From a bacterium (lineage in GTDB: Bacteria; Zhuqueibacterota; Zhuqueibacteria; Oceanimicrobiales; Oceanimicrobiaceae), in assembly GCA_046757165.1 (NCBI GenBank), contig JBHHXT010000112.1, positions 1 through 14,728 of the forward strand: a stretch of DNA of 14,728 nucleotides, given 5' to 3'. The notes under the pieces are model-generated. The model had not been told where the DNA came from. It ran no database searches and saw nothing but the letters and a program-made list of their open reading frames with translations. The number at the start of each line of letters is the position of its first letter. Position 1 is the stretch's first letter. Made by a program: the position numbers and the translations under genes. Of this stretch, positions 1 to 14,728 are shown one piece after another.

Positions 1-596
1 CGCCACCGCCAGGTGGGGGAGACGTGACGGTATCGATGAAGGACAACTTTTTTTCTCCGCGATCTGTTGGGGTGCAGCCCGGGGCAACCATCACCTGGGA
101 GAATGCCGGCAAGAAAAAACATACTTCTACTAGCGATAGTGGCATCTGGGACTCCGGGGATGTCAACGCCGGGCAGTCCTATAGCTGGACGGTTCCCACG
201 AACGCAGCGGACGGTAGCAGCTTTCCTTACTATTGCGTGTTCCACGGCGACCGGGGGGGCCAAGGTATGGCCGGCGTGATCAACGTGGGCGCGAATCCTC
301 CCCCTCCGAGCGCTGGTGATACGGTTATCGTGACGACACCCGGCTCGACTTTCAGTCCGGAACGCGTTGAGATCAAGCCGGGGGACACGGTGGTGTGGGA
401 ATTTTCTGGTACCACGCATAATGTCACCTTCAAAGATGAAGATGAGACGCCACCAGATGGGGACATCCCCGACTCGCCCCCGGGCGCCAGCGTGTCCCGG
501 ACGTTCCCGGATGAAGGCGACTACGACTACGAATGCACCTTGCACGACGGCCAGAAGGGACGAATCCGGGTGCGGGCTGATTTAGGACGTCCTTGA
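1..596 (+). CDS. Multi-domain cupredoxin (plastocyanin/azurin family) with at least 2 type-1 copper domains; 5'-partial
   Basis: The frame of ORF 24..596 stays open to the window edge (3-23 reads PPPGGGD, a linker), so GTG24 is probably not the start. Domain 1: HTSTS...YYCVFHGDRGGQGM. Pro-rich linker NPPPPS. Domain 2: FSPERVEIKPGDTVVW...HNVTF...YECTLHDGQKG. Confidence 0.9.
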   Translation, partial: PPPGGGDVTVSMKDNFFSPRSVGVQPGATITWENAGKKKHTSTSDSGIWDSGDVNAGQSYSWTVPTNAADGSSFPYYCVFHGDRGGQGMAGVINVGANPPPPSAGDTVIVTTPGSTFSPERVEIKPGDTVVWEFSGTTHNVTFKDEDETPPDGDIPDSPPGASVSRTFPDEGDYDYECTLHDGQKGRIRVRADLGRP

Positions 597-646
597 GGAA
601 ACGCGAAGAATAAATTTCTAATTTATCGAAATTGGCAGGAGGGATT

Positions 647-1597
647 ATGAGGTGTCAAAGAATCCATTTTTCTGGCTGGGGAGCGAGTATTGTGATACTC
701 CTCTTCCAGATGCTGCCTGCGACTCTTCACAGTCAGGCAGCCGACGGGAAGACACTTGCAAGCGTGGAACGGGCATTCGCTGCCTCCCGCGGTGAGCGGA
801 TTTACACGCGAGCATGCGTTCCCTGTCACGGCGTCAAGGGGGATGGCAAGGGACCGTTTTCCACGCCCCTATCTCCTAAACCCCGTGATTTCACCTCCGG
901 AAAGTTCAAGTTTCGCACGACCCTGGCCCGGTCGCTGCCCAGTGACCAGGATGTCTTCAAAACCATCTCGGAAGGCGTTCCCGGCACGTTTATGCCCGCC
1001 TGGGAGGATCTTCTTTCAGAAAGAGACAGGATGGACCTGGTGCAGTACATCAAAACCTTCTCAAAGAGATTCAGTGACCCCCGGCTTTCTGTTGAACCCA
1101 TAAATGTGTCGAATGCTGTCCCGCCCTCGGAGGTGAGCATTGCCCGGGGCCGGGAAGTGTATGAAAAGATCGAATGCATAAAATGTCACGGCAATCAGGG
1201 CCGGGGGAATGGCCCGTCTGCAAAGGACTTGGAGGATGACTGGGGCTATGCTTTGCGGCCTCCTGATCTGACCAGGAGCTGGACATTCAAAGGGGGCACC
1301 GCGAGAGAAGACATTTACTGCCGATTCATGAGCGGCCTGTCCGGCACGCCCATGCCCTCTGTCGCCGAGAGTTTCGTGCTTGATGAGGAAGTCGAAGAAA
1401 TACAAATCAAGATCGAGGATGGCGAGGAGGTCACCCCTGAGGAGCGGCAGAAGTATGATGAGGCGATGGAAGAGATACGGCAGAGCATTTGGCATCTTAC
1501 CAATTATGTCAAATCTCTTTCAAGAAAGCCAGGACTATTCTACCAGTTGTTTGTTGAAGATACCGAAGTAACAAAGGCAAGGAGTGTGAAAAAATGA
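647..1597 (+). CDS. Exported diheme cytochrome c
   Basis: AGGAGG at 637-642 precedes ATG647, favoured over TTG632. Hydrophobic N-terminal leader. CVPCH and CIKCH, each followed by GxGxGP and a GTxMP distal-Met motif. Confidence 0.9.
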   Translation: MRCQRIHFSGWGASIVILLFQMLPATLHSQAADGKTLASVERAFAASRGERIYTRACVPCHGVKGDGKGPFSTPLSPKPRDFTSGKFKFRTTLARSLPSDQDVFKTISEGVPGTFMPAWEDLLSERDRMDLVQYIKTFSKRFSDPRLSVEPINVSNAVPPSEVSIARGREVYEKIECIKCHGNQGRGNGPSAKDLEDDWGYALRPPDLTRSWTFKGGTAREDIYCRFMSGLSGTPMPSVAESFVLDEEVEEIQIKIEDGEEVTPEERQKYDEAMEEIRQSIWHLTNYVKSLSRKPGLFYQLFVEDTEVTKARSVKK

Positions 1598-2073
1598 AGG
1601 TAAAGAAACTTCAAAACCTATTGCTGGTTGCGGGGCTCGGTATCGTCTGTATCAGCACCTGGACGTCCTGCCGGGGAGATGGCACCGGGTTGACCGCAAG
1701 CGGCGAGCTGGAGGGGGTGTCCGGTTTTGCAGCTCAAATTCAACCTATCTTTGACACCAACTGCATTCGGTGTCATGCTCCGGGAGGATTTGGGTTCTTA
1801 CAAACAGGTGGCAGCGAAAACAACGGTTTGGATTTGACGCGTGGCACCTCTCATTCAAGTTTGGTGAACCAACCAACTTTTGAAGCACCGGATGTGGAGC
1901 CCAAAATGAGAGTTGAGCCCGGCGATGCAGAGGGCAGTTATGTTTATCAAAAAATTGTGTCCGCCACGCCGAAATTCGGCCGGCGCATGCCTTTTGATGG
2001 CCCGCCATTTCTGTCAGCAAGCGAAACTGAATTGATTCGGGCCTGGATTGAGCAGGGCGCACCCAATAACTAG
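1594..2073 (+). CDS. Monoheme cytochrome c, probable lipoprotein
   Basis: ATGA overlap with the upstream stop (1594-1597). Basic-hydrophobic leader ending WTS-C (possible lipobox). IQPIFDTNCIRCH, RMP distal Met, C-terminal IRAWIEQGA. Confidence 0.82.
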   Translation: MKVKKLQNLLLVAGLGIVCISTWTSCRGDGTGLTASGELEGVSGFAAQIQPIFDTNCIRCHAPGGFGFLQTGGSENNGLDLTRGTSHSSLVNQPTFEAPDVEPKMRVEPGDAEGSYVYQKIVSATPKFGRRMPFDGPPFLSASETELIRAWIEQGAPNN

Positions 2074-2084
2074 GAGGAATGGAC

Positions 2085-3167
2085 ATGTTGAATAAAAGAT
2101 CAGCCTGGCTCTTGAGTCTCCTGTTTGTGATTGGGGAGTTTTTCGCGTTCAATAGCTCGCCGGCTCATGCCGAACCGTATCTCGCCATGCGTACGGGATT
2201 CAAGTGCTCGCAATGCCATGTCAACCGCACTGGTGGTGGCAAACGAACCGACTTTGGGGTCATCTATTCACAAACCAATCTCTATATGAAATTCCTTCGG
2301 CCTGCAGGCGGCTCCGGCTTTTTTTCCGGCAAATTGAATGAGGTCATCTCTGTGGGCGCCAACTTTCGCGCCGATGACGTTTCCCGTTTCGGATACAAGA
2401 GCGCTCTCGGCGAGAAGGCAGATTTTACGAATAACTCCAGAGTACCGGAAGCCAACATCTATTTTCTCTTCGAGGTTGTTCCGGAGGTCCTGAGTATTTA
2501 CGCGGACCAAACGTTAGCGCCGGGCAGCGGCAACCGCGAATTCTTTGGCGTGATTCAGAATCTGCCGGCGAATTCCTACCTCAAAATAGGGCGGATGCTC
2601 GCCCCCTACGGCTTGCGATTGCGCGATGACGATGCATTCATCCGAAATGGAACAGGCTTTACGTACAACAGCCACGATGTCGCTCTCGAGGTGGGCGTGG
2701 AACCCGGACCCTTGTCTTTGATTGCGAACGTGACTGAAAATGATCTCGCGCTGGTCGGAGCAACGGTGTTTCGCAGGTTTCGTGTCGGGGGGTCTTTTTC
2801 ACAGAATATCAGAAACAGCGATGACTATGTGTACGGTGTTTTCGGCGGCGCCAACTTTGGGCGATTCACCCTGCTCGGTGAAGGTGACTTTATCCAAAAA
2901 CCGGACGTGGACCAGTTCGCCTTCCTGGCTGAGCTGAATTTCTTGCTTCGAAAAGGGCTGAATCTGAAGGCAACTTATGAGTTTTTTGATCGAAATCGCG
3001 ACGTCTCGAACGACCGCGACGGCCAGGAGCGCATTACGTTTGGCGTGGAACCGTTTATCACACAATTCATGCAACTGGGCATATTTTACCGCATCAATCG
3101 CTTTATTCCACAAAACGTGCCCCTGAATCAGGACCAGTTGACCGTGCAGTTCCATGTGTTCCTCTGA
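2085..3167 (+). CDS. Cytochrome c / outer-membrane beta-barrel fusion (Cyc2-like architecture)
   Basis: AGGAGG at 2072-2077 fits ATG2085 better than ATG2079. Signal peptide ending AHA|E. AEPYLAMRTGFKCSQCH lies right after the cleavage site. The remainder shows amphipathic beta-strand patterns (ALEVGVE, FRVGGSF, LNLKATYEFFD) and ends QLTVQFHVFL. Confidence 0.75.
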   Translation: MLNKRSAWLLSLLFVIGEFFAFNSSPAHAEPYLAMRTGFKCSQCHVNRTGGGKRTDFGVIYSQTNLYMKFLRPAGGSGFFSGKLNEVISVGANFRADDVSRFGYKSALGEKADFTNNSRVPEANIYFLFEVVPEVLSIYADQTLAPGSGNREFFGVIQNLPANSYLKIGRMLAPYGLRLRDDDAFIRNGTGFTYNSHDVALEVGVEPGPLSLIANVTENDLALVGATVFRRFRVGGSFSQNIRNSDDYVYGVFGGANFGRFTLLGEGDFIQKPDVDQFAFLAELNFLLRKGLNLKATYEFFDRNRDVSNDRDGQERITFGVEPFITQFMQLGIFYRINRFIPQNVPLNQDQLTVQFHVFL

Positions 3168-3232
3168 GATGACAACGGAGGTGTAGATTCAGGAGGACCG
3201 GAATAAGTAGCGTTTACTGCGAAGGATAAGAA

Positions 3233-5008
3233 ATGAAACCAGGAAATCGTTCCCGTTTGTTCGGAAGAACCTTCTCTGAAAGTCGGAGGCGAGCCTCCTC
3301 GAGCCGTTGGCTCAGGAGTGTGGGAGTGCTCGCATTTCTTTTGTTTGTGTTCATTCTGGCGGGCGCCCTTTTTGCTCAGCAGCAGCAGGTCGAAACACCC
3401 CAGTACCGCGAGTTTCCGCTCGTAGGCAGCCGGACGGCGATGTGGGTGGTCGGGCAGCTCCATCTGATGTTCGCGGCCTTTATTCTCGGCGTGCCGATCT
3501 TTGCGGTCATCATCGAATTCGTGGGCGTGCGGTCGAAGGACCCGCGCTACGACCGCATGGCAAAGGAGTTCATCAAGCTTTGCCTGGTCGCTTTTTCCAC
3601 CACGGCCCTGCTCGGCGTCGCCCTGCTGTTCATGCTGGTCACCCTCTATCCCAAGTTTTTCACCTATATGACCAACATCTTCTCTCCGACTTATCTGGTC
3701 TACGTCCTGCTGTTCTTCGGGGAGACCTTCACGTTGTATCTCTATTGGTATACCTGGGACAGGTTGATGAACCACAAATGGGTGCACCTGACCCTGGGGG
3801 TTCTGCTCAATCTCTTCGGCACCGCGATCATGTTCGTGGCCAACGCCTGGCTGACGTTTATGACCAGTCCCGCCGGCGTTGACGAAAGCGGCGCTCTGCT
3901 GAGCGTCTGGGATGCGGTGACCAATTTCACCTGGATGCCCATCAACATTCACCGCCTGATTGCGAATGTGGCCTTTGGCGGCTCTATCGTGGCGGCGTAT
4001 TCGGCGGTGCGTTTTATTACGGCCAAGACACACGAGGACAAGGCGCACTACGACTGGATGGGGTATACCGGAAATTTTATCGCCATCAGTGCGCTGATTC
4101 CTTTGCCGTTTGCCGGCTATTGGTTGGGAAAGGAAATCTATGAGTTCAACCAGACCATGGGCATCAACATGATGGGCAGCCTCTTCTCCTGGCTTTTCAT
4201 TATTCAGGCGGCGATGATCGGCGTGCTTTTTCTGGGCATGAATTTCTATCTCTGGTCCGGAATGAACCGAATCAAGGGCGCAGAAAGATATGCCAAATAC
4301 CGGCCACTGATGTTCGCCATCCTGATCGCTTGTATCGCGGTGTGGGCGACGCCCCGGACCCTGGTGCTCAGCCAGGCGGAGAAAGCGGCCATCGGGGGCG
4401 AACACCATCCGCTGGTTGGCGTCTTTGGCGTGATGTCGGCCAAGAACACGGCGGTCAACCTGATTATTTTGACCACATTTCTTGCTTTTCTTTTTTACCG
4501 CCGTTCCGGCAAAAGCCCGGTCACCAGATGGGCCAGGAGCGCGAACATCGCGATAGGTGGCATTTTCGGCGCCGCGACGATTGCCGTCATCGCCATTGGC
4601 GTGCTGGGATATTACGTGCCCAGCCTGACCCGGGTCAACGTTCTGACCCCGGGGCAGGTGATCATTGTTCTGACGGTTTTGCTCGCGGTCACCATTATCG
4701 ATGTCATTCTATACCGCCGGGCCTCGGTGTTGGGAGAAGTGCAATGGGGTAAAATGACCAATCGGTCCCAGTATGCCCTCATTCTTTTGGCCGTGACCTT
4801 TACCTCTCTGATGGGGCTCATGGGTTACGCGCGTTCAGGGCTGCGCGAAGACTGGCACGTTTTTGGAGTCATGCGGGACACTTCTCCGGGTGCGTTTACC
4901 CCCACGCTCGGAGACGCCTCAAATATCATTGCGGCGATTGTGTTTGTCTTCTTTGCCATGATCCTGTTCATCTTTTGGCTGGGATCCGTTGGGGACAAGA
5001 AAGATTAG
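3233..5008 (+). CDS. Cytochrome bd subunit I (CydA)-like polytopic membrane protein, non-canonical (Nitrospira-type bd-like oxidase)
   Basis: Many TM segments. CydA-like landmarks: QLHLMFAAFILGVP (His19-like), FFGETF...WD (Glu107-like), ANAWLTFMTSP, NIHRLIAN (His186-like). GYARSG stands in place of EYGRQPW. No QPxKxAAxE quinol motif is visible and no cydB follows. Confidence 0.85.
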   Translation: MKPGNRSRLFGRTFSESRRRASSSRWLRSVGVLAFLLFVFILAGALFAQQQQVETPQYREFPLVGSRTAMWVVGQLHLMFAAFILGVPIFAVIIEFVGVRSKDPRYDRMAKEFIKLCLVAFSTTALLGVALLFMLVTLYPKFFTYMTNIFSPTYLVYVLLFFGETFTLYLYWYTWDRLMNHKWVHLTLGVLLNLFGTAIMFVANAWLTFMTSPAGVDESGALLSVWDAVTNFTWMPINIHRLIANVAFGGSIVAAYSAVRFITAKTHEDKAHYDWMGYTGNFIAISALIPLPFAGYWLGKEIYEFNQTMGINMMGSLFSWLFIIQAAMIGVLFLGMNFYLWSGMNRIKGAERYAKYRPLMFAILIACIAVWATPRTLVLSQAEKAAIGGEHHPLVGVFGVMSAKNTAVNLIILTTFLAFLFYRRSGKSPVTRWARSANIAIGGIFGAATIAVIAIGVLGYYVPSLTRVNVLTPGQVIIVLTVLLAVTIIDVILYRRASVLGEVQWGKMTNRSQYALILLAVTFTSLMGLMGYARSGLREDWHVFGVMRDTSPGAFTPTLGDASNIIAAIVFVFFAMILFIFWLGSVGDKKD

Positions 5009-5011
5009 CTC

Positions 5012-5109
5012 CATTGTTGTATTGCTCTATTGTTTTGTTGTTCTGCTGCTTCATCACGATCCAGCAATAAAACAATAAAACAATGAAACAATGAAACAAT
5101 GAAACAAAA
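5012..5109. repeat. Inverted array of 8-bp tandem units (YATTGTTT-like x5, then AAACAATR x5-6)
   Basis: Left arm: CATTGTTG TATTGCTC TATTGTTT TGTTGTTC TGCTGCTT (5012-5051). Right arm: CAGCAATA AAACAATA AAACAATG AAACAATG AAACAATG AAACAAAA (5062-5109). The unit consensus of one arm is the reverse complement of the other. Confidence 0.9.
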
Positions 5110-5121
5110 CCAAGAGAATCC

Positions 5122-6423
5122 ATGCAAAGAATCAGTCTAAAAATACTCGCGTTTGTTTTTTTGTTCCTCAGTCTCACTGCGTACGTGATGAGCGCCGAGC
5201 CTTTTCTGCTCTCGTGGACGGTCTGGGTTTTTCTGTTGATCTGCATCAATCTGGCGGTCTGGCAGAAGTTGATGCGATTGGCGACCTTTACCATGCTGGT
5301 CATTTGGTCGTATGCGGTGCTCGGAAATCTCATTCCCCAGTCCACCTCCGGGCCGTCAGTGGCGTTGGGGGATATTGAGCGGACGCCGGATGAATTTATT
5401 GCTGCCGGCGACGCTATTTTTCATGGCAAGGGCAAGTGTGCCACCTGCCATACCATCGGCGGTGGCGCCACGGAGTCACGGTGTCCAGACCTGGCGAATG
5501 TCGGGAGCGATGCTGCAAGCCGCAAGCCTGGGATGTCGGCGAAAGAGTATTTCGTGGAATCGCTCTACCTGCCGTCGGTCTATCTCGTCTCAGGCTACGG
5601 TAAGATCATGCCGGAGATCTGGAAACCCCCCATCGCGCTCACGCCGCTCGAAATCGAAACCGTCGTCGCCTTCTTGCAAAGCCAGGGCGGCGAGCCGGAT
5701 TTAACGCCCATTAAGCCGCCGGTGGATATCAGTGCGTTTGAAGAAACCCCGCAGCGCGAGCTAAAAGGCGACCCTGAGGCCGGAAGGTACGTGTTTGTTC
5801 AGCATCTCGAATGTATCAAATGCCACCAGGTTGGTGAGGAAGGCGGGCAAGGTGGGGTCGGCCCGGATCTGACAGAGATCGGTGCGCTCAACACGGTGGA
5901 CTACATCGAGGAGTCGATCCTGGAGCCCAACGCCAACATTGTTTCCGGATATGGTTGGACCATGGTGAGCCTCGCCGATGGCAGGAAATTCAGCGGTACC
6001 GTCGTCAAGGAGGACGAGGAGAAAATCACCTTGCTCCTGGACGGCGTCATGGGGGGAAGCGCCGGGGCGGAGCAAGTCGTCGCCAAAGAGGACATCCTGG
6101 TCCGCCGCATCCGGAGAATGGAAAATATACTCGGGCAGGGCTACTTCTGGGTTCAGGGCGGTCTGAAAGATGGCACCGCAGTCAGCGGCACAATCATCGA
6201 GGAAGACGAAGCCACTCTGACCATCAAAGCCAGCGAGGACCACGTCAAGGTCGCAAAACCAGACATCGACTGGCTCGAGGGAAGAAAGATGCAGGTCACC
6301 TCCAAAATGCCCAAGTACGACGAGGTGATCACCATCAAGCAGTTCGAAGATTTGCTGGCCTATTTGGCGAGTTTGAACGGCTCGGCGGCGAACGGGATCG
6401 CGGCCGACAACACAACGAATTAG
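5122..6423 (+). CDS. Membrane-anchored diheme cytochrome c with duplicated beta-rich insert
   Basis: About 3 N-terminal hydrophobic helices. GKCATCH...CPDL...IMP. CIKCH...GPDLTEIG...YIEESILEPNANIVSGY...SKMP, a pattern resembling the Planctomycete/Verrucomicrobia-type putative heme-binding domain. Confidence 0.88.
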   Translation: MQRISLKILAFVFLFLSLTAYVMSAEPFLLSWTVWVFLLICINLAVWQKLMRLATFTMLVIWSYAVLGNLIPQSTSGPSVALGDIERTPDEFIAAGDAIFHGKGKCATCHTIGGGATESRCPDLANVGSDAASRKPGMSAKEYFVESLYLPSVYLVSGYGKIMPEIWKPPIALTPLEIETVVAFLQSQGGEPDLTPIKPPVDISAFEETPQRELKGDPEAGRYVFVQHLECIKCHQVGEEGGQGGVGPDLTEIGALNTVDYIEESILEPNANIVSGYGWTMVSLADGRKFSGTVVKEDEEKITLLLDGVMGGSAGAEQVVAKEDILVRRIRRMENILGQGYFWVQGGLKDGTAVSGTIIEEDEATLTIKASEDHVKVAKPDIDWLEGRKMQVTSKMPKYDEVITIKQFEDLLAYLASLNGSAANGIAADNTTN

Positions 6424-6475
6424 GCGCTGATAAGTTTTTTTCTGTCATTTTTTGGCAAGAAATGAGATTTAAATC

Positions 6476-6615
6476 CCAAGAAATAAAGATTTCACGCAAA
6501 GACGCTAAGGCGCAAAGAGCATCGCAAAGAAAAACCTTTGCGTATTCTTTGCCTCTCTGCGACTTTGCGTGCGCTCTTAATTTTCTTTTCTTGGTTCCGG
6601 CTTGTCCGGGTTAAG
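6476..6615. repeat. Long imperfect palindrome of 8-bp units (RCGCAAAG / CTTTGCGT), MITE-like
   Basis: ACGCAAAG ACGCTAAG GCGCAAAG...TCGCAAAG (6494-6529) faces CTTTGCGT...CTTTGCCT CTCTGCGA CTTTGCGT (6536-6570). Outer pair: CCAAGAAA (6476-6483) / TTTCTTGG (6587-6594). Followed by TTCCGGCTTGTCCGGGTT. Confidence 0.85.
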
Positions 6616-6635
6616 AAAACTAGTGAGGAAGATCG

Positions 6636-7376
6636 ATGAAAAAACTCTCCAGCTTCACTAAAGGCGTTATTCTGCTCGTGACATGTTTCATTGTTTTCAA
6701 ATATGTTGTGACGCCGCCGCTGCCGGCGAGTCTGGTCTATCTGTATATGGGGATGGTGCTCATTGCCATCCTGGCCCAGGTTTCGATCGAAGACGAAAAG
6801 CTGGAAGAATTTGTGCGACCGCTAAGAGAGGTGCTGGTCAGAGAGGAGAAGGCCAAAGCTCGCACGGTTTTGTTTTCAACTTTCCCGCTGGCAGTAGCTG
6901 CTCTGGTGTTTTCACAATATACGGTGAGCACGGCGCCTCCGGCGGAGCTGCGTACGGTTCATCCTGCGCCACCGGCCGAGATCGAGTTTCGTGGCGAGAA
7001 AATCAAACTGGTGGGATTGGAAAATCCTTACCGTCACGACGCGCAGAATTACGAGAAATATGTTGAAGAAGGCCGGACGGTCTACTATCAAAACTGCCAT
7101 TTTTGTCATGGCGACAATTTGGACGGAAATGGCATGTTTGCCGACGGGTTCAACCCCCGGCCGGCAAACTTCCGGGACGCTGGCACTATTGCCATGCTGC
7201 AGGAGTCCTTTGTTTTTTGGCGGGTAAGCAAGGGCGGGCCCGGCTTGCCCCGGGTGTCGACGCCATGGTCCTCCGCCATGCCGGCATGGGAGACGATGTT
7301 GACAAAAGATGAAATCTGGCAAGTGATCTTATTCATCTATGACGCCACCGGGCAAACGCCCCGGACGTGGGAGTGA
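6636..7376 (+). CDS. Membrane-anchored monoheme cytochrome c
   Basis: GAGGA RBS at 6625-6629. About 3 N-terminal TM segments. RTVHPAPP, NCHFCHGDNLDGNG, PRPANF, PWSSAMPAWE. Confidence 0.9.
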   Translation: MKKLSSFTKGVILLVTCFIVFKYVVTPPLPASLVYLYMGMVLIAILAQVSIEDEKLEEFVRPLREVLVREEKAKARTVLFSTFPLAVAALVFSQYTVSTAPPAELRTVHPAPPAEIEFRGEKIKLVGLENPYRHDAQNYEKYVEEGRTVYYQNCHFCHGDNLDGNGMFADGFNPRPANFRDAGTIAMLQESFVFWRVSKGGPGLPRVSTPWSSAMPAWETMLTKDEIWQVILFIYDATGQTPRTWE

Positions 7377-7422
7377 GGCGTCCCCCGAACGCATTGAACG
7401 GTTACAGGAGATTTGAAATCAG

Positions 7423-9135
7423 GTGCGAACCATGTTCAAACTAATCCAACTTTTCACCTTTATCGGCTTTGCACTCGCTGCCAACGTTGTGGTGGCGCAG
7501 AGTGGTGCAGAAAAGATCTCTGATGTCTCTGCAGATGAGACTGTCGTTCAGGGTAAATTGATTTATGAAGAGAAGTGCGTGCAGTGTCATGGCGCCGACG
7601 GCATGGGCGATGGGCCGGCTGCGGAACGACTCAATCCACGGCCGAGAGATTTTACGCGCGCCAAGTATAAGATTCGCTCTACCGACTCGCGGGAGCTGCC
7701 CACGGATGAGGATCTGTTCAACGTCATCACCAATGGCATGCCCGGTACTTCGATGCCTGCCTGGGACGACCTGAGTGCAGATGATCGCAGGAACGTGGTG
7801 GCCTATATCAAGACTTTCTCGAAGCGATTCGACCAGGCCGGCGCGCCGCCGAAAAAACTGAACCTGGGCGACAAGGTTTCTTCTTCGGACGAGAGTGTGG
7901 CTCAGGGCCGGCAGGTTTACGAAGAGATCGAGTGTTCAAAGTGCCACGGTCAGGAAGGACGCGGAGATGGTCCGTCAGCGTTGAGTCTCGTCGATGAGTG
8001 GGAGTACCCGATTCGACCCGCTGACTTGACAGAAAGCTGGACCTTTCGTGGCGGCAGCTCGGCCGAAGACATCTACAAGCGCTTTATTGCCGGGCTTGAC
8101 GGCACACCGATGCCTTCGATTATCGGCAGTTTCGTCATGGACGAGGACATTGAAGAGATTCAGATAAAAATCGAGGATGAAGAGGAGTTGACGGACGAGG
8201 AGCGCGAGAAATTCGAAAAGGCGATGGCAGAGGTTCGTGTCAAGAGCTGGCACCTGGCGAATTATGTGCGCTCCCTGGCTCCTGAAGATGCGCCTGAAGT
8301 CGAAGTCGTGCTCGAGTCGAAGCTGGTTGAGGGAGAGCTGCCGCAGGAGATCGATGACCCGCGCTGGCATGAATTAGAAAGAAATTTCTATCCTCTGGTC
8401 GGCCAGGTCATCCTGGAGCCGCGGAACTTTACGCCTTCTGTCGATGCGGTGTTTGTCAAATCCATGTACAACGAGGAGGAGATCGCCTTTTTGTTGACCT
8501 GGGATGATCCATCTGTGAGCGTCGCATCCAGGCCGGAAGATACCTCGGCCTCCGAGACAGTGGAGGAGGCTGCGATGTCAGCCATATCGGAGCAGGAAAC
8601 GCCGACCATCTACGATGACGCCATCGCCATGCAGTTTCCGGTAAAGCTTTCGGATAAGCCGGACCGCCCGTACTTTCTTATGGGCGACTCCCGAAAGGGT
8701 GTCTATCTCTGGCGCTGGCAGGCGTCTGATTCTTTCGATACAGAAGGCCAACCAAACGCGATTTCACATGTGACAGAAGAGAACGCGAAAGGGATGACTG
8801 AGGTTTCGGAACAACCGGGCGAAAGCCAGACCGTTGATGCCAAAGTCGTGTACAGCAACGGCCGCTACCAGCTTTTGGCCAGGCGGAAAAGGAACACTGA
8901 TGACAAGAATGATTTGCAGTTCGAAGCGGGCAGATTCATCCCCATCGCTTTTTTCGCCTGGGATGGCTCCAGTAACGAGAGCGGAAGTCGATGCTCGGTT
9001 TCCACATGGTATTATTTGCTGCTCGAGGAGCCCGCATCCCAAAAGAGGTTTCTCTATGCGCCGATTGCGGCGGTCCTGGCAATTGCGTTCCAGGTCCTCT
9101 TGATGAAGAATGTTCGCAAGCGCGCAAAAGCATAA
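7423..9135 (+). CDS. Diheme cytochrome c fused to an ethylbenzene-dehydrogenase-gamma (EbdC/NxrC-like) heme b domain, with C-terminal membrane anchor
   Basis: Signal peptide; the start is GTG7423 or ATG7432. CVQCH and CSKCH. EB_dh-type motifs LLTWDDP, DAIAMQFP, PYFLMGD, LWRWQA, IPIAFFAWDG...STW. C-terminal TM helix followed by a basic tail. Confidence 0.88.
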   Translation: MRTMFKLIQLFTFIGFALAANVVVAQSGAEKISDVSADETVVQGKLIYEEKCVQCHGADGMGDGPAAERLNPRPRDFTRAKYKIRSTDSRELPTDEDLFNVITNGMPGTSMPAWDDLSADDRRNVVAYIKTFSKRFDQAGAPPKKLNLGDKVSSSDESVAQGRQVYEEIECSKCHGQEGRGDGPSALSLVDEWEYPIRPADLTESWTFRGGSSAEDIYKRFIAGLDGTPMPSIIGSFVMDEDIEEIQIKIEDEEELTDEEREKFEKAMAEVRVKSWHLANYVRSLAPEDAPEVEVVLESKLVEGELPQEIDDPRWHELERNFYPLVGQVILEPRNFTPSVDAVFVKSMYNEEEIAFLLTWDDPSVSVASRPEDTSASETVEEAAMSAISEQETPTIYDDAIAMQFPVKLSDKPDRPYFLMGDSRKGVYLWRWQASDSFDTEGQPNAISHVTEENAKGMTEVSEQPGESQTVDAKVVYSNGRYQLLARRKRNTDDKNDLQFEAGRFIPIAFFAWDGSSNESGSRCSVSTWYYLLLEEPASQKRFLYAPIAAVLAIAFQVLLMKNVRKRAKA

Positions 9136-9214
9136 CATAATCGAACCTTGCCCTTGTGGTGGTCATGAGAGCAAGATCCTAAACACTTTAAACTAATAGT
9201 AGGAGGACGTAGAG

Positions 9215-9943
9215 ATGAAGTTAACAACCTGTCTACTTGTTGGCGTTTGGATGAGTTGGGCTTTTACCGGACCGACCAGGGCCACCGAGCCTACCGATGC
9301 CGGTTCCATCAGTGGCACCGTAACGTTTCAGGGTAAGGTACCGGAGCCCCAGAAGCTAAAGGTTGACAAGGATCTAGAAATCTGTGGCCAGCATGAAAAA
9401 TACTCAGAAGAGCTGCTGGTCTCGGAGACAGGCGGCCTCGAGAATGTCGTCATACAACTTGTCGGCGCAAAAGGGGTAGTAACCATACCAAAAGGTAAGG
9501 ACAGACCCTCGATTACACAAAAGGAATGCCAGTTCAGTCCGCACGTTCAGGTGGTCCCTGCCGGGACGAGAATGAGTATTTTCAATGAAGACGGCATTGC
9601 CCACAACATCCATACACTTGGTGTGGAGAATCCTTCCTTCAATCAACAGCAGCCCGGCATCAAGAAAAGGATGGTGACCAAAAAGAATGATTTCGCCGTC
9701 CCGGAGATGATCCCGATAAAGTGTGATATTCATCAGTGGATGAAGGCCTGGATTGTAGTGGCAGATCACCCGTTTCATGCGGTTAGCGATGACGGTGGCG
9801 CCTTCAAAATTTCCGGCGTGCCGGCAGGAACCTACACGGTCGAATTCTGGCATGAAACGCTCGGGAAACAGACTCAGGAAGTAACGGTCAAGCCCGGCGC
9901 TGATGTTGAGGTTCAAGCGGTGTTCAAAGCCAAGAAGTCCTGA
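9215..9943 (+). CDS. Exported cupredoxin-like protein with carboxypeptidase-regulatory-like beta-sandwich
   Basis: AGGAGG RBS and signal peptide. GSISGTVTF, QKECQFSPHV, HNIH, KCDIHQWM (His...Cys-x2-His-x2-Met type-1 Cu pattern), GAFKISGVPAGTYTVEFWHE. Confidence 0.8.
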   Translation: MKLTTCLLVGVWMSWAFTGPTRATEPTDAGSISGTVTFQGKVPEPQKLKVDKDLEICGQHEKYSEELLVSETGGLENVVIQLVGAKGVVTIPKGKDRPSITQKECQFSPHVQVVPAGTRMSIFNEDGIAHNIHTLGVENPSFNQQQPGIKKRMVTKKNDFAVPEMIPIKCDIHQWMKAWIVVADHPFHAVSDDGGAFKISGVPAGTYTVEFWHETLGKQTQEVTVKPGADVEVQAVFKAKKS

Positions 9944-10060: not shown

Positions 10061-10162
10061 GTAGAGGCTGAGGCGCAGAGAACCTGCATGTTGTATTAAG
10101 ATGACTATCCGAGCAGCATGATTCCAGGGGCAACTGGTGCGGGTTCAGGTCTCAGCCTCTGC
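10061..10162. repeat. Long inverted repeat / REP-like hairpin
   Basis: GTAGAGGCTGAGGC (10061-10074) pairs with GTCTCAGCCTCTGC (10149-10162). GAACCTGCA (10080-10088) pairs with TGCGGGTTC (10138-10146). The only deviations in these stems are G:U-type. Confidence 0.8.
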
Positions 10163-10186
10163 CCGATTAAGTGTCGGAGGACGTTT

Positions 10187-10888
10187 ATGAAAGTTGACAA
10201 GAATGATGTGTCCATCGAAGTGGCATCGCCAAACGGCAATGGCGTGTGCACGTATCCTGTGCACGATTTTACGCCGGAATTTTTGCGATGGCAACTCGAA
10301 GACCGCAGGGCCATTTTTCAGGATATTGCGGCAAAAGACATCGTGCCGAGCTTCGCCTCACATCTGCCGGTTGTGACAACCGTAAACCCGAATGGGGCAC
10401 TGTTTCCGTTTCATACCTCGACAAAAGGAGTGGGCCTGCTGCCCAGGGACGAATATCTGCAACACTATTGTGACTACTTCAGGAGACTCATCGACCTCAG
10501 CAACGGCGCTGATCGGAAACAAAGTAAATGCCAGAGAGTGGAGGCAATACTGAAATTCTACAACAGCGATCACATTGCCACCAACAAGCTTGGACTTCTG
10601 GAGATTTTTCGCGGAAATTCTTTTCGCAACATTGAAGCCAATCCCCTCGTCAGCTTGCAGTTCACCAGCGCCGGTCCACACTATAAGAGTTTTCAAATCA
10701 ACGGCATCGCGGAAATCGTGGATGGTTCTGATTTGAATTTTCAGTTCATCTGGCTGGCGCGCAGGCTTTTCGAGTATGAAAGCTTCCATATCCAACATCC
10801 GGAATACACGACCGGCTATGTGGTGTGGGTGAGCGAGGTTTACGACAAAGCGCCCATCCGGGGCAAGGCGGGGAAACGGTTGCGGTGA
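10187..10888 (+). CDS. Cytoplasmic protein, possible pyridoxamine-5'-phosphate-oxidase-like split barrel
   Basis: GGAGGA at 10176-10181 precedes ATG10187; the extension from 10118 lies inside a hairpin. NSFRNIEANPLVSLQF...SFQINGIAEIV resembles the PNPOx-like 'NixxNPxvsl...qikGxAei' signature. No signal peptide. Confidence 0.62.
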   Translation: MKVDKNDVSIEVASPNGNGVCTYPVHDFTPEFLRWQLEDRRAIFQDIAAKDIVPSFASHLPVVTTVNPNGALFPFHTSTKGVGLLPRDEYLQHYCDYFRRLIDLSNGADRKQSKCQRVEAILKFYNSDHIATNKLGLLEIFRGNSFRNIEANPLVSLQFTSAGPHYKSFQINGIAEIVDGSDLNFQFIWLARRLFEYESFHIQHPEYTTGYVVWVSEVYDKAPIRGKAGKRLR

Positions 10889-10930
10889 CTCAAATCTGTC
10901 GGGTTGTTTCTATCCGTTGGAGTAAAGACC

Positions 10931-12535
10931 ATGTACAAAAAAATCTACGTTCCTCTTGACAATTCAGCGCATGCGAATTCGTGCATGGATTTTTCCATTG
11001 CGCTTGCAAAAGCCACGGGTGCAGCGCTGGTTGGCAGTCACGTGTATGCGGCAAAAATGCACGACATGCGTTTCAAGCAGATGGAGTTCACGCTGCCGGA
11101 GCAGTATCGTGCTGAAGCCGAGCTTGAAAAGCAGCGCCGCACGCACGACAGCCTGATCGCCGAGGGACTGCGGCTCATCAGCCATTCCTATCTCGACGTC
11201 ATGGAAAAACGCTGCGCGGAGCACGAGCTGCCATTCGAAAAGAAAACCTTCGACGGAAGAAATTATCAGGAGCTGGTCAAGGATATCCGAGCGAGCGACT
11301 ACGATCTCGTCGTCATGGGGGCGCATGGCCAGGGCGCGGTAAAAGGAAGCCTGCTCGGAAGCGTCACAGAGCGTGTGGTGCGTCGCATTCAGGTGGATAC
11401 ATTGATCGTTAAGGATGTGCAACCCTGGGAGACTCAGGTCAACGGCCATTCCTCGAATGGACCGATTGTGGTGGCATTGGACGGCAGTCCGCACGCCTTC
11501 CACGGCCTGAAAATCGGGATGCTGCTGGCCAGGAAATTCAACAAGCCGTTGCACGGCGTAGCTGTGTACGATCCTTATTTGCATTATGGCATTTTCCACA
11601 GCATCGCGGATGTTCTTTCGGACGAGGCGGCCAGGGTGTTCAAGTTCAAGGAGCAGGAGCAACTGCATGAAGAGGTGATCGACTCCGGGCTGGCGAGAAT
11701 CTACCAGTCGCACCTGGAGGTCGGCAAGCGGCTGGTCGAGGCGGAAGGTCTCGAGATGGAGGTCACGCTCTTGCCGGGCAAACCGTATGAGAAGATTCTG
11801 CACTACGTTGACAAGCAAAATGCGTGGCTGCTGATTTGCGGCCGCATCGGCATCCACAGCGAGCCAGACATGGACATCGGCAGCAATTCTGAAAACCTGC
11901 TGCGGCGGGTTCCCTGCCATATGCTGCTGGCCAGCGGCCAGCTCGTGCCCCCCATCGAGCTCAATGCCGACGCATCGATCGAGTGGACGAAGGAGGCGCT
12001 GAGTCGCATGGATAACGTTCCCGACTTTGTGCGCGGCGTGGCACGTCAGGCTATTTTGCGCTGGGCCGTGGAGCGGGGCCATTCTGTAATTACCTCTGGC
12101 GTTATCGATGAGGCCATGCGCGACGTGCTGCCCCCGTGCGCTGCGTCCGCGATGGGCGTGGAGCGGGCGGCTGCGAGAGCGCGGAATGCGGAGGAGGCCG
12201 TTTATGTTTGCAATACCTGCGGCCACACGGTGCCGCGAAAGCCACCGGTCAAGTGCAGAGTTTGTGAGGCCGCGGGAAAGAATTTCACAAAAGTGGATAA
12301 GGCAGCAATCGAATCGAAAGCTCAGCATGAGGGCGACCTCGAAGCGCAAACGACTTTTGATGGCGTGCGTTTATTCTGGACCGAGGAGGCGAAACAGGCG
12401 CTGCAGGCCGCACGTTCTGGCCCGGCAAGGCGTTGCGCCAGAGCGCGCATTGAAAAGCAGGCACGGGTGCAAAAGCTCTCGAAAATTACCCGGGAGCTGG
12501 TGCTGTCGGTCGTGAAAGAGGAGGCTGGCCACTGA
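10931..12535 (+). CDS. Tandem universal stress protein domains fused to PCP_red-like helical domains and a rubredoxin-like CxxC..CxxC domain
   Basis: GGAG precedes ATG10931 (MYKKIYVPLDNS). USP1: DLVVMGAHGQG...LGSVTERVVR. USP2: IVVALDGS...GRIG...IGSNSENLLR. WTKEALSRMDNVPDFVRGVAR; CNTCGH...KCRVC; WTEEAK...RIEKQAR...IT. Confidence 0.88.
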   Translation: MYKKIYVPLDNSAHANSCMDFSIALAKATGAALVGSHVYAAKMHDMRFKQMEFTLPEQYRAEAELEKQRRTHDSLIAEGLRLISHSYLDVMEKRCAEHELPFEKKTFDGRNYQELVKDIRASDYDLVVMGAHGQGAVKGSLLGSVTERVVRRIQVDTLIVKDVQPWETQVNGHSSNGPIVVALDGSPHAFHGLKIGMLLARKFNKPLHGVAVYDPYLHYGIFHSIADVLSDEAARVFKFKEQEQLHEEVIDSGLARIYQSHLEVGKRLVEAEGLEMEVTLLPGKPYEKILHYVDKQNAWLLICGRIGIHSEPDMDIGSNSENLLRRVPCHMLLASGQLVPPIELNADASIEWTKEALSRMDNVPDFVRGVARQAILRWAVERGHSVITSGVIDEAMRDVLPPCAASAMGVERAAARARNAEEAVYVCNTCGHTVPRKPPVKCRVCEAAGKNFTKVDKAAIESKAQHEGDLEAQTTFDGVRLFWTEEAKQALQAARSGPARRCARARIEKQARVQKLSKITRELVLSVVKEEAGH

Positions 12536-12710
12536 CGCAAAACCCGCTGAGATTGCAGAGTTCGTTTTTTTTGTCCTTCATTTCTCCGCGTGTGCTGCGG
12601 TCTCTGCGTGAGGCAATATGGTATCGAATGGATAGAACTTGGCCTGAATAATTCATTCACCGCAAAGGCGCGAAGAACGCGAAGAATTTCCGGTTTGTCC
12701 GGGTTTAGGA
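12535..12710. repeat. Inverted 9-bp unit array plus a partial second element ending in TTCCGGTTTGTCCGGGTT
   Basis: ACGCAAAAC CCGCTGAGA TTGCAGAG (12535-12560) faces TCTCCGCGT GTGCTGCGG TCTCTGCGT (12583-12609). CGCAAAGG CGCGAAGAA CGCGAAGAA (12661-12686). The 18-mer at 12688-12705 matches 6595-6612 at 17/18 positions. Confidence 0.75.
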
Positions 12711-12739
12711 GCCAAGCTTAGTCCAGGAGGGAGCGACCC

Positions 12740-13183
12740 ATGACCATTAGAGTTTTCGTTTTTGATGATGATGAATCCGTTAGAACGACCTTCGCGAGAA
12801 TGCTTTCGAGGTTGGGATACGAGGTGATAACCTTTTCTCGCGCTGCTCTTTGTGATAGCTGCAAATGCCTCGACGGGCAGGTGTGCGCCGATATCATCAT
12901 TTCTGATGTGGACATGCCAGGCGTGACCGGTCTGGAGTTCATTGCGGGTCAAAGAATGAACGGGTGCAAAGCCAGCAGCGTGGCGCTCATGTCCGGCAAG
13001 TGGACGGAATCTGGTTTGCAGCGAGCCAGAGAGCTTGGGTGTCATATTTTTCAAAAACCTTTGAACATACAAGAAATGAAGGAGTGGCTCGAGCACTGTC
13101 AGAGAAACATCCTGCCCGGCAGAACTCTGGCTCCCTGGTTTCAGCAAGATGCGGATCCACAAGGTCCGGGAGACGACGCCTGA
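12740..13183 (+). CDS. Single-domain response regulator (receiver) with Cys-rich insertion
   Basis: AGGAGG RBS. VFDDDE acidic pocket, IISDVDMPG phosphoacceptor Asp, LMSG, FQKP Lys. No output domain. Confidence 0.9.
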   Translation: MTIRVFVFDDDESVRTTFARMLSRLGYEVITFSRAALCDSCKCLDGQVCADIIISDVDMPGVTGLEFIAGQRMNGCKASSVALMSGKWTESGLQRARELGCHIFQKPLNIQEMKEWLEHCQRNILPGRTLAPWFQQDADPQGPGDDA

Positions 13184-13424: not shown

Positions 13425-14309
13425 ATGAAAACCTACAAGGACCTGAAGGAGGACGGAGGGTCGAAGATCATCGAGCAAGTGCAGGCACAGGCAGAGCGCG
13501 TCGCTCACCGACTCGCCTCAGTCGGTCGCAAAGTTGCGGTGATGTCAGGCAAAGGGGGCGTGGGCAAGAGCTCGGTGACCGTCAATCTGGCCGCAGCATT
13601 GGCCTTGCAAAACGTTCGCGTTGGCATTCTGGACGCCGACCTCAACGGACCATCCATCGCCAGGATGACTGGCGTGCGCAGCCACGATGTCACGAGCGGC
13701 AAGGCGGTCATGTGCCCGGGGGAATCGAGCCTCGGCATCAAGGTCATGTCGATGGATTTTTTCCTGGCCCGTGACGACACCCCGGTGACGTGGGATTCGC
13801 CGTTGCCGCAGCAGGATGCTTTCACCTACCAGGGATTCATCGAGACCAGTACGCTGCGCGACCTGGTTTCCGAAACCGAGTGGGGCGAGCTCGACTTTCT
13901 GTTCTTTGATCTTCCCCCCGGCGCCGAGCGTCTCCCCAACATCGAGGGGGCCCTGTCGGGTTTGGACGGCACCATTGTGGTCACCATCCCGTCCGAAATT
14001 TCCCAACTTTCGGTCAAGAAATCAATCGCTGTAGTGCAGAAGTACCTGCGTACGCCCATCATCGGGTTGGTTGAGAATATGTGCGGCTACGTGTGTCCGG
14101 ATTGTGGCACGACCCAGCCCCTGTTTCCCCCGGGCAACGGCGAACAGTTGGCTGCCTCCTATGGCATCCCGTACCTCGGTGGCATCCCCTTTGATCCGAG
14201 ATGGGCAGAATGTGCGGACGCGGGGGTGTGTTATGTGCATCAATACGGAGATTCGCCAGCGGGCCAGGCAGTCAAGAATATCGCTAATAGATTAATCAAC
14301 GGTTTGTAA
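13425..14309 (+). CDS. mrp: Mrp/NBP35 (ApbC) family P-loop ATPase, Fe-S cluster carrier
   Basis: AGGAG RBS. MSGKGGVGKS, GILDADLNGPSI, WGELDFLFFDLPPG, GLVENM...CPDCG, LGGIPFDP. Confidence 0.93.
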   Translation: MKTYKDLKEDGGSKIIEQVQAQAERVAHRLASVGRKVAVMSGKGGVGKSSVTVNLAAALALQNVRVGILDADLNGPSIARMTGVRSHDVTSGKAVMCPGESSLGIKVMSMDFFLARDDTPVTWDSPLPQQDAFTYQGFIETSTLRDLVSETEWGELDFLFFDLPPGAERLPNIEGALSGLDGTIVVTIPSEISQLSVKKSIAVVQKYLRTPIIGLVENMCGYVCPDCGTTQPLFPPGNGEQLAASYGIPYLGGIPFDPRWAECADAGVCYVHQYGDSPAGQAVKNIANRLINGL

Positions 14310-14332: not shown

Positions 14333-14728
14333 ATGAAGTTTCTCTGTGTAAGCTGTGACGAACAAATGAAAATCAAAGAGACCCGTGGCCCGGATGAAGG
14401 GTCGGTGACCCTGATTTTCCAGTGTCCGGGCTGTGGCTGGGAAGTCGGCATGCTGACCAATGCGTATGAGACGCAAATTGTGCAGTCCCTGAACGTGAGG
14501 ATCGGCCCGCAAGCAAACGAGTCGACCACGTCTCGCTGTCCGGTCGGCCAGGCCAGGTCTTCATCTTCCATCCACTGGACGCCTGAGGCGACAGAACGGT
14601 TGCATCGCGTTCCCACGTTTGTGCGAGAGATGGCCCGAATGGGCGTCGAAGAATTTGCCAGTGCGCATGGCTACGACGTAATCACGGAGGAAGTGATGAC
14701 GGCCGCGCGGGCGGAGCGTGGCATGTGA
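14333..14728 (+). CDS. Small Zn-ribbon-like (CxxC...CxxC) protein with C-terminal PCP_red-like domain
   Basis: AAGGAGG RBS. MKFLCVSCD...FQCPGCG. WTPEATERLHRVPTFVREMARMGVEEFA...GYDVITEEVM resembles the BchB/ChlB C-terminal domain. The stop is at the last base of the window. Confidence 0.85.
   Translation: MKFLCVSCDEQMKIKETRGPDEGSVTLIFQCPGCGWEVGMLTNAYETQIVQSLNVRIGPQANESTTSRCPVGQARSSSSIHWTPEATERLHRVPTFVREMARMGVEEFASAHGYDVITEEVMTAARAERGM

Follow-up and report, generated by a model that had tools for sequence, protein, structure and literature searches.

The 14,728-nucleotide stretch of bacterial DNA analyzed here (the window; contig JBHHXT010000112.1 of assembly GCA_046757165.1) is an entire contig, C112, of a 6.09-Mb genome (G000; 531 contigs; 99.98% complete by markers). 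It carries a row of nine genes in which two modules are joined: an outer-membrane cassette that includes a compact cytochrome-porin, and a bd-like module that includes a CydA-like membrane subunit. The join recurs in three phyla and was not found in the literature searched (mostly titles and the starts of abstracts), which likewise yielded no description of this porin family or of its bd-like link; each half is of a known kind or a relative of one. Our tentative reading, to which we assign a probability of about 0.45, is that the row draws electrons from an extracellular reduced compound (probably Fe(II) in solution or another metal) and relays them, by way of haem c and copper carriers, to the CydA-like complex, for which oxygen reduction is predicted.

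The nine open reading frames (ORFs) lie on the + strand at 3-596, 632-1597, 1594-2073, 2079/2085-3167, 3233-5008, 5122-6423, 6636-7376, 7423-9135, and 9215-9943. An earlier note on this DNA had counted nine co-oriented genes with nine CxxCH motifs and three type-1 copper sites, and the count was confirmed: the ORFs hold 0, 2, 1, 1, 0, 2, 1, 2, and 0 CxxCH motifs in order (sum, 9), and two copper motifs fall in the first ORF and one in the ninth. Shuffling the residues of the nine proteins gave a mean of 0.007 CxxCH and a maximum of 1 in 2000 shuffles. Only 65 bp separate the porin gene from the CydA-like gene, and in each of the four runs from one study single unitigs cover this junction; a chimeric join was considered and is unlikely given that spanning. 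The window DNA is present in four hydrothermal-vent metagenome runs, all of one study. Protein localizations given here combine readings of the sequence with structural models, and signal peptides were judged by eye.

The porin gene (2085-3167, + strand) is read from the ATG at 2085 rather than from 2079 on the basis of better spacing from a GGAGGA site, and encodes a fused protein of 360 amino acids with a predicted signal peptide, a AEPYLAMRTGFK-CxxCH haem cap, and a 16-strand barrel. In the model (predicted local distance difference test score [pLDDT], 91.4), a signal helix at residues 2 to 22 is followed by a small helical haem cap and 16 strands, and the closest structure is OprP (2o4v; Foldseek E value, 3e-11; Z, 23.8; root-mean-square deviation, 3.0; 278 residues aligned), which is also the template reported for Cyc2 in the available part of that report (10.1101/228056). 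Barrel and cap are thus modelled features, and they agree with the earlier prediction of an outer-membrane cytochrome-porin at this position. The protein had no Pfam or NCBIfam match and no PDB relative by sequence; 765 relatives were found by sequence, and the ESM Atlas returned unnamed clusters and one Porin_O_P cluster. A single CxxCH occurs in 117 of the 120 best matches, the window's own record counted, and lies at residue 43 of the long ORF in the window.

We call this porin Cyc2-like rather than Cyc2, because the published motif and length rules fail and the profile match is short; from its sequence it appears to be an unnamed sister type outside the published Cyc2 rules. According to the available part of the Cyc2 report (10.1101/228056), Cyc2 resembles the window porin in its signal peptide, its one N-terminal CxxCH in the same register, its 16-strand OprP-like barrel, and the lack of an evident distal haem ligand. 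The signal peptide that precedes the window motif was read by eye and from the model helix. Whereas Cyc2 as described there has PXFAR[QK][TY] and PXL motifs, the window porin family has EPYxAxRT and NxTGGGxR; unlike Cyc2, the window porin is about 360 amino acids long, has a near-constant lipoprotein cytochrome partner, and lies outside published filters. It fails the FeGenie length filter of at least 365 amino acids, as do 91 of the 120 matches. Profile comparison with seven Cyc2-like barrels, from whose alignment a spurious ORF (L073) was left out, gave a weak match confined to the barrel part (probability, 84; E value, 7e-6; 58 columns).

The CydA-like subunit (3233-5008, + strand) fits the OR-N family of the cytochrome bd superfamily, probably the OR-N1/N2 type, as judged from its sequence. 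Equivalents of E. coli His19, E107, His126, His186, and Arg448 are kept as His77, Glu164, His185, His240, and Arg538, the first of them in 90 of 93 relatives; of the canonical bd oxidase (qOR) set of E99, E107, E445, and K252/E257, only E107 is kept. The earlier description of a bd-like subunit lacking the quinol site was supported: the quinol-site region is replaced, with similarity stopping before the Q-loop, and the K252/E257 positions read Gly310/Gly315 when the alignment is extended. The subunit carries no CxxCH. Its model (residues 49 to 591; pLDDT, 92.7) has 13 long helices against an expectation of 14 for OR-N1/N2, and an N-terminal hydrophobic stretch outside the model may be a signal peptide; the best fold matches were ten bd oxidase chains (Z, 32.5 to 35.9). 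Profile scans of the 14 window proteins found no CydB-like match. As far as the available text of 10.1101/2021.01.16.426971 goes, OR-N N1/N2 enzymes, which have about 14 membrane helices, share with the window subunit the CydA fold, His19, and the lack of a quinol site, and OR-N operons likewise often have no second CydA-like gene; the window subunit differs from that description in having Tyr at E99. Relatives named Nitrospinae are 51% identical and those named Nitrospira/Manganitrophaceae 40% identical, the latter with the same residue pattern.

The recurrence of the pairing was observed directly in gene content. Of 61 relatives, 6 have the porin and 4 a close CydA-like gene, the two occurring together in the window genome and G013. 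In 251 Gemmatimonadota genomes, the porin occurred in 22, the CydA clade in 71, and both in 16; in 151 Fibrobacterota genomes the counts were 11, 4, and 4. In Gemmatimonadota, the CydA clade thus occurs in 16 of the 22 genomes with the porin and in 55 of the 229 without it; in Fibrobacterota, the figures are 4 of 11 and 0 of 140, kin not being independent in either comparison. The two genes lie at most 12 kb apart in 8 of the 22 genomes that have both, in three phyla (G000, G013, G061, G426, G446, G104, G125, and G192), and also in two metagenome loci (L046 and L048), so that the pair proposed in the earlier note does occur together elsewhere. This frequency is far above random placement in genomes of 3 to 6 Mb, although kin are not independent and three seed genomes are counted. 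At least four gene orders are found among the linked loci: the cassette precedes the module in the window, G013, and G125; the module is followed by the cassette, the cupredoxin gene, and then the accessory genes in G061, G426, G446, L046, and L048; and the order is shuffled in L045/L057. In a quick CydA tree, which includes long-branch rows, the linked proteins fall in four clades, most with unlinked neighbors. The G013 locus (L020, contig C126) has the window gene order in another genus. One porin locus, L017, is labelled Bifidobacteriales despite its outer-membrane cytochrome-porin cluster; the label or the bin is probably wrong.

The near-constant upstream partner of the porin is a monohaem c lipoprotein (1594-2073, + strand) with a lipobox-like Cys27 and distal Met132. 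Of 103 deduplicated loci, 83 extend 700 bp or more upstream of the porin gene, and 76 of these have the lipoprotein gene there; C57, C60, H61, and M132 are invariant in 66 aligned sequences. At 79 loci its haem motif reads CxxCH in 38, CxxxxCH in 34, and CxxxCH in 2, and plain CxxCH counting would overlook nearly half of these cytochromes. A predicted periplasmic dihaem cytochrome c (632-1597, + strand) is a 57% paralogue of the dihaem part of the product of 7423-9135; among the first 95 porin loci, 58 had at least 1.5 kb upstream, and of these 30 had a dihaem cytochrome c and 22 a cupredoxin.

The first ORF (3-596, + strand), with Pfam matches to Copper-bind and Cupredoxin_1, is cut by the contig start, so that only the last two domains remain of a long multi-cupredoxin protein with repeats, which is likely a lipoprotein. 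It had been placed among the periplasmic carriers but is not a small soluble one: it is 74% identical to the end of a 1223-amino-acid relative, and its full-length relatives (819 to 1223 amino acids) have repeated cupredoxin domains and, by eye, a lipoprotein-like N-terminal Cys. One copper motif is H40/C78/H81 with a Met just C-terminal to it (Met-type), and the other is H139/C178/H181/Gln184, with a Gln-type axial residue. The missing N-terminal part of the gene probably lies at the end of contig C45, as suggested by gene neighbors in relatives, equal read depth, and a collapsed repeat at about 6x that depth; no end-to-end sequence overlap was found between C45 and the window. Contig C45 (L110 and L111) is a redox island with two canonical Cyc2-like genes, sensor pairs, a Rieske/cytochrome b/octahaem set, two further cupredoxin lipoproteins, a 341-amino-acid barrel-like protein with a His-rich loop, and a multi-cupredoxin gene start.

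On the inner-membrane side, the CydA-like gene is followed, in related loci as in the window, by a gene for a membrane-anchored dihaem cytochrome c with a TIGR02603-type domain (5122-6423, + strand). A membrane-anchored monohaem cytochrome c (6636-7376, + strand) was recognized by profile match, CxxCH, and related loci, and the gene at 7423-9135 (+ strand), of the type termed alt_NxrC, encodes a dihaem c fused to an EB_dh (NxrC-like) domain with a C-terminal membrane anchor. Its dihaem part matches PDB 6h5l_B (E value, 5e-53), a Kuenenia HAO partner. In the EB_dh part, Met155 of NxrC corresponds to Met420 and Lys305 aligns to Cys524; the Met ligand is present in 6 and the Lys ligand in 0 of 21 related EB_dh domains. 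In NxrC, haem b is ligated by Met and Lys (PMC8387239, available part). A haem b in the window domain is doubtful because the Lys ligand is missing in 21 of 21 related domains, unlike in NxrC. The ninth gene (9215-9943, + strand), which accompanies both modules, encodes a predicted periplasmic cupredoxin inside a carboxypeptidase-regulatory-like fold, with the copper motif H130/C170/H173/M176 invariant in 36 to 37 aligned relatives.

The cluster does not end at 9943, as had been supposed, since genes lying between there and 14728 accompany the bd-like module in other loci too. They encode a PNPOx-like split-barrel protein (10118-10888, + strand; weak Pfam match), which in Fibrobacterota is fused to the Usp protein; a Usp-Usp-PCP_red-rubredoxin-like protein (10904-12535, + strand); an Mrp/ApbC-type Fe-S carrier ATPase (13425-14309, + strand), which accompanies the module in Gemmatimonadota; and, at the contig end, a small PCP_red protein (14333-14728, + strand). 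In relatives, the set also includes a radical SAM/SPASM-PCP_red gene. The radical SAM/SPASM orthologue of the window genome lies on contig C439, and PNPOx-like, Usp, Mrp, PCP_red, and radical SAM/SPASM genes travel with the bd-like module. A second bd-like module of the same genome (C75:332-10442; L112) has a CydA-like protein 49% identical to that of the window, with cupredoxin, PNPOx-like, and Usp genes. In four Gemmatimonadota loci (L128, L143, L144, and L145), Mrp, Usp, and radical SAM genes and the bd-like module are followed directly by coxB/coxA.

This inner half is an already described module with a putative activity. The window has the TO_1 gene set: clustered genes for a bd-like protein, an EB_dh-type protein, and two cytochromes c. 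In the available parts of the reports concerned, TO_1 of “Ca. Manganitrophaceae” (10.1101/2021.11.15.468770) is the bd-like_3/alt_NxrC_2 cluster of Nitrospira moscoviensis (PMC6606698), a cluster of this type is conserved in Nitrospina and Kuenenia (PMC3578206), and TO_1 shows the highest expression among the oxidase candidates of a Mn(II) oxidizer (10.1101/2021.11.15.468770). A bd-like subunit, two membrane c-type cytochromes, a dihaem/EB_dh protein, and a cupredoxin are common to TO_1 and the window; unlike TO_1 as described there, the window module is joined to an outer-membrane cytochrome-porin cassette and sits in a genome with no detected enzyme of the nitrite oxidoreductase (NXR) type. 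The earlier note knew of no characterised system with the whole combination; of its two halves, the inner one is the part already described.

In the route that we propose, partners, substrate, direction, and acceptor are inferred. By analogy with Cyc2, the porin haem would be reduced by a small reduced solute, and gene linkage suggests that the lipoprotein cytochrome would be the first acceptor of the porin electron. The dihaem c and the cupredoxins would then carry electrons over the periplasm, and the three membrane-anchored cytochromes would feed the CydA-like haems in place of quinol. The CydA-like complex would pass the electrons to O2; this final acceptor is the least certain part, since two glutamates of the canonical active site are substituted. 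The making or loading of an altered cofactor would fall to the radical SAM, Mrp, Usp, and PNPOx-like genes. The coupling appears to be modular, in that the same cassette can feed other respiratory complexes: elsewhere it lies beside haem-copper oxidases (L042 and L043), cytochrome b/Rieske genes (L031), pentahaem and molybdopterin subunits (L099), canonical Cyc2-like genes (L025, L066, L074, and L091), or a set like alternative complex III (ACIII). Two sets of neighbors, 80 and 39 in number, were scanned, a selection from about 200. In L043 (1-15678), the cassette stands between cytochromes with 17, 32, and 8 haems and a haem-copper oxidase.

The earlier note had likened the row to the rus operon of Acidithiobacillus ferrooxidans, given as cyc2, cyc1, cup, coxBACD, and rus in the available part of PMC13741234. 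The logic of cytochrome-porin, dihaem c, blue copper protein, and membrane oxidase is shared, but the window parts are analogues and the likeness is one of analogy only: profile scans of the window proteins gave no match to a haem-copper oxidase or rusticyanin, and the window row, unlike the rus operon, is a recurrent join of two separable modules without rusticyanin or an aa3 oxidase.

A number of findings weigh against electron uptake coupled to oxygen in this row. On the side of the porin, the Cyc2 motif AXPXFAR[Q/K][T/Y] N-terminal to CXXCH was found in 0 of 117 haem-bearing matches (the window reads AEPYLAMRT), as was the PXL motif four residues past CXXCH, 95 having NxTGGGxR instead. In 14 of the 22 genomes with both genes, the two were not seen within 12 kb (some are on short contigs), and the linkage in G104 and G192 is loose, with accessory genes and a kinase or an aldehyde dehydrogenase gene in between. 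Of the 19 long porin loci in the unselected set, which leaves out L127 to L131 (fetched as adjacent), only 3 contain a CydA-like gene; 55 of the 71 CydA-clade Gemmatimonadota genomes had no porin match, and no porin was found at the bd-like cluster on C75. Most porin loci are without a bd-like gene and have haem-copper oxidases, bc, or ACIII-like genes as respiratory partners, and in many a PAS hybrid kinase, an aldehyde dehydrogenase, or both come after the lipoprotein-porin pair (L062, L070, L085, L127, and others). Autotrophic Fe oxidation is not indicated because RuBisCO was not found, the window genome giving no match. At the oxygen end, OR-N enzymes have no confirmed O2 reductase activity in the available text of PMC10839748 and PMC12342949; E99 is replaced by Tyr157 (Tyr in 94 of 97 aligned relatives), and E445 is replaced by Ser535 (Ser in 84 of 96 relatives, in a C-terminal alignment that is low-scoring but consistent). 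The single wired layout drawn in the earlier note is weakened, the row being two modules that are often found apart.

The separate occurrences would be expected if the cassette loaded a shared periplasmic cytochrome/cupredoxin pool for any oxidase or reductase, with the bd-like module an independent low-oxygen oxidase and the clustering a matter of co-regulated respiratory islands, an account that we consider possible but somewhat unlikely. The frequent finding of each module alone and the varied partner complexes of the cassette agree with it, as do the three haem-copper oxidases, NapA, and AioA of the window genome. So does contig C45, which probably lies upstream: it forms a large island of redox genes that includes two further genes of the Cyc2-like kind and a bc-like set. 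Identities to G013 of 94 to 95% for CydA and 69% for the porin hint at separate histories. Such independence is harder to reconcile with the 65-bp gap in the window, the Fibrobacterota arrangement, in which the cassette sits without interruption between module and accessory genes, and the recurrence of the linkage in several orders and clades. It is very improbable, in our estimation, that the cassette serves outward transfer, with Fe(III) or humic substances as acceptors, or acts as a redox sensor, with the bd-like link secondary. PAS kinases 3' of the porin (L062, L066, L070, L085, and L127) and the very large multihaem cytochromes 5' of the cassette in L043 would suit such a role, but the single-haem porin resembles the oxidizing Cyc2 type and the identified cassette partners are mostly oxidases. 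Type-1 copper and His/Met haems generally point to high potentials, which also speaks against it. Heterotrophy has been ascribed to the groups of many of the hosts (to KSB1 in the available part of PMC10732223), a circumstance in favor of an outward or sensory role.

The chain could also be real and end elsewhere than at O2, with the CydA-like complex shuttling electrons at a new site between quinone and cytochrome c, in place of complex III (e.g., for uphill flow), or reducing NO or another N-oxide; we regard this as improbable. Ends of this kind have been proposed for the Nitrospina and anammox homologues in the available parts of PMC3578206 and PMC6606698. The earlier note had left the acceptor as O2 or an N-oxide; the O2 end has become less safe because E99 is replaced by Tyr and E445 by Ser. 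The next-best folds for the CydA-like model are ACIII ActF/ActC and PsrC (Z, 15.8 to 23.3), and 4 of the 5 scanned Gemmatimonadota loci have a coxB/coxA oxidase directly 3' of the module. Reduction of oxygen is favored by the retained equivalents of His19, E107, His126, His186, and Arg448 and by the bd oxidases as best fold matches, and all five such Gemmatimonadota genomes have an NrfD/ActC-family gene elsewhere. A molybdoenzyme partner (NxrAB/NarGH-like), for which the earlier note had suggested looking, did not appear: no NXR/pNar-type catalytic subunit, which would belong to the type II DMSO reductases, was found in the 531 contigs of the window genome (best, 112 to 159 bits versus a cutoff of 985), and none occurred in 201 Gemmatimonadota genomes among the matches listed (at most four candidates scored per genome). 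Replacement of complex III by the module was considered as a candidate, and the gene distribution gave it no support.

The window genome has four more cytochrome-porins. Contigs C9, C34, C156, C162, C329, C97, and C137 carry several bc-like sets with octahaem cytochromes, together with NapA, AioA, a second AioA-like gene, and two additional porins of the Cyc2-like type. Iron-oxidase genes have been described from KSB1 genomes (PMC10732223, available part). Within the window, a palindromic intergenic repeat element at 6424-6635 (no strand assigned), with 63 blastn matches in the genome and a read depth raised about ten-fold in its bin, is not part of the system. A second intergenic palindromic element at 12536-12739 has 66 blastn matches and is followed directly by a lone response regulator gene (12740-13183). 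A promoter scan of the window was at chance (9 found versus 7.4 expected), and terminator-like sites exceeded chance (29 versus 15.4 expected), one of them, near 6523, falling inside a repeat.

In its broadest form, the electron uptake reading would make compact cytochrome-porins with their dedicated lipoprotein cytochrome an unrecognized plug-in uptake cassette, wired in KSB1, Fibrobacterota, and Gemmatimonadota to an OR-N bd-like complex that acts as an oxidase fed by cytochrome c, with a remodelled active site and a cofactor of its own made by the radical SAM protein; many supposed heterotrophs would then harvest metal electrons unseen by marker screens. We think this generalization rather unlikely.

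The bd-like module is a candidate for the terminal oxidase of Nitrospira, Nitrospina, and the manganese oxidizer Manganitrophus. The window locus and its relatives show this module in genomes without detected nitrite oxidoreductase, tied to a candidate outer-membrane electron inlet, and the conserved residues and accessory genes of the module provide a defined gene set to express. The porin family, present in 22 of the 251 genomes searched in Gemmatimonadota and in 11 of the 151 in Fibrobacterota, falls outside the published Cyc2 filters, so that surveys of metal-oxidation potential may undercount it.

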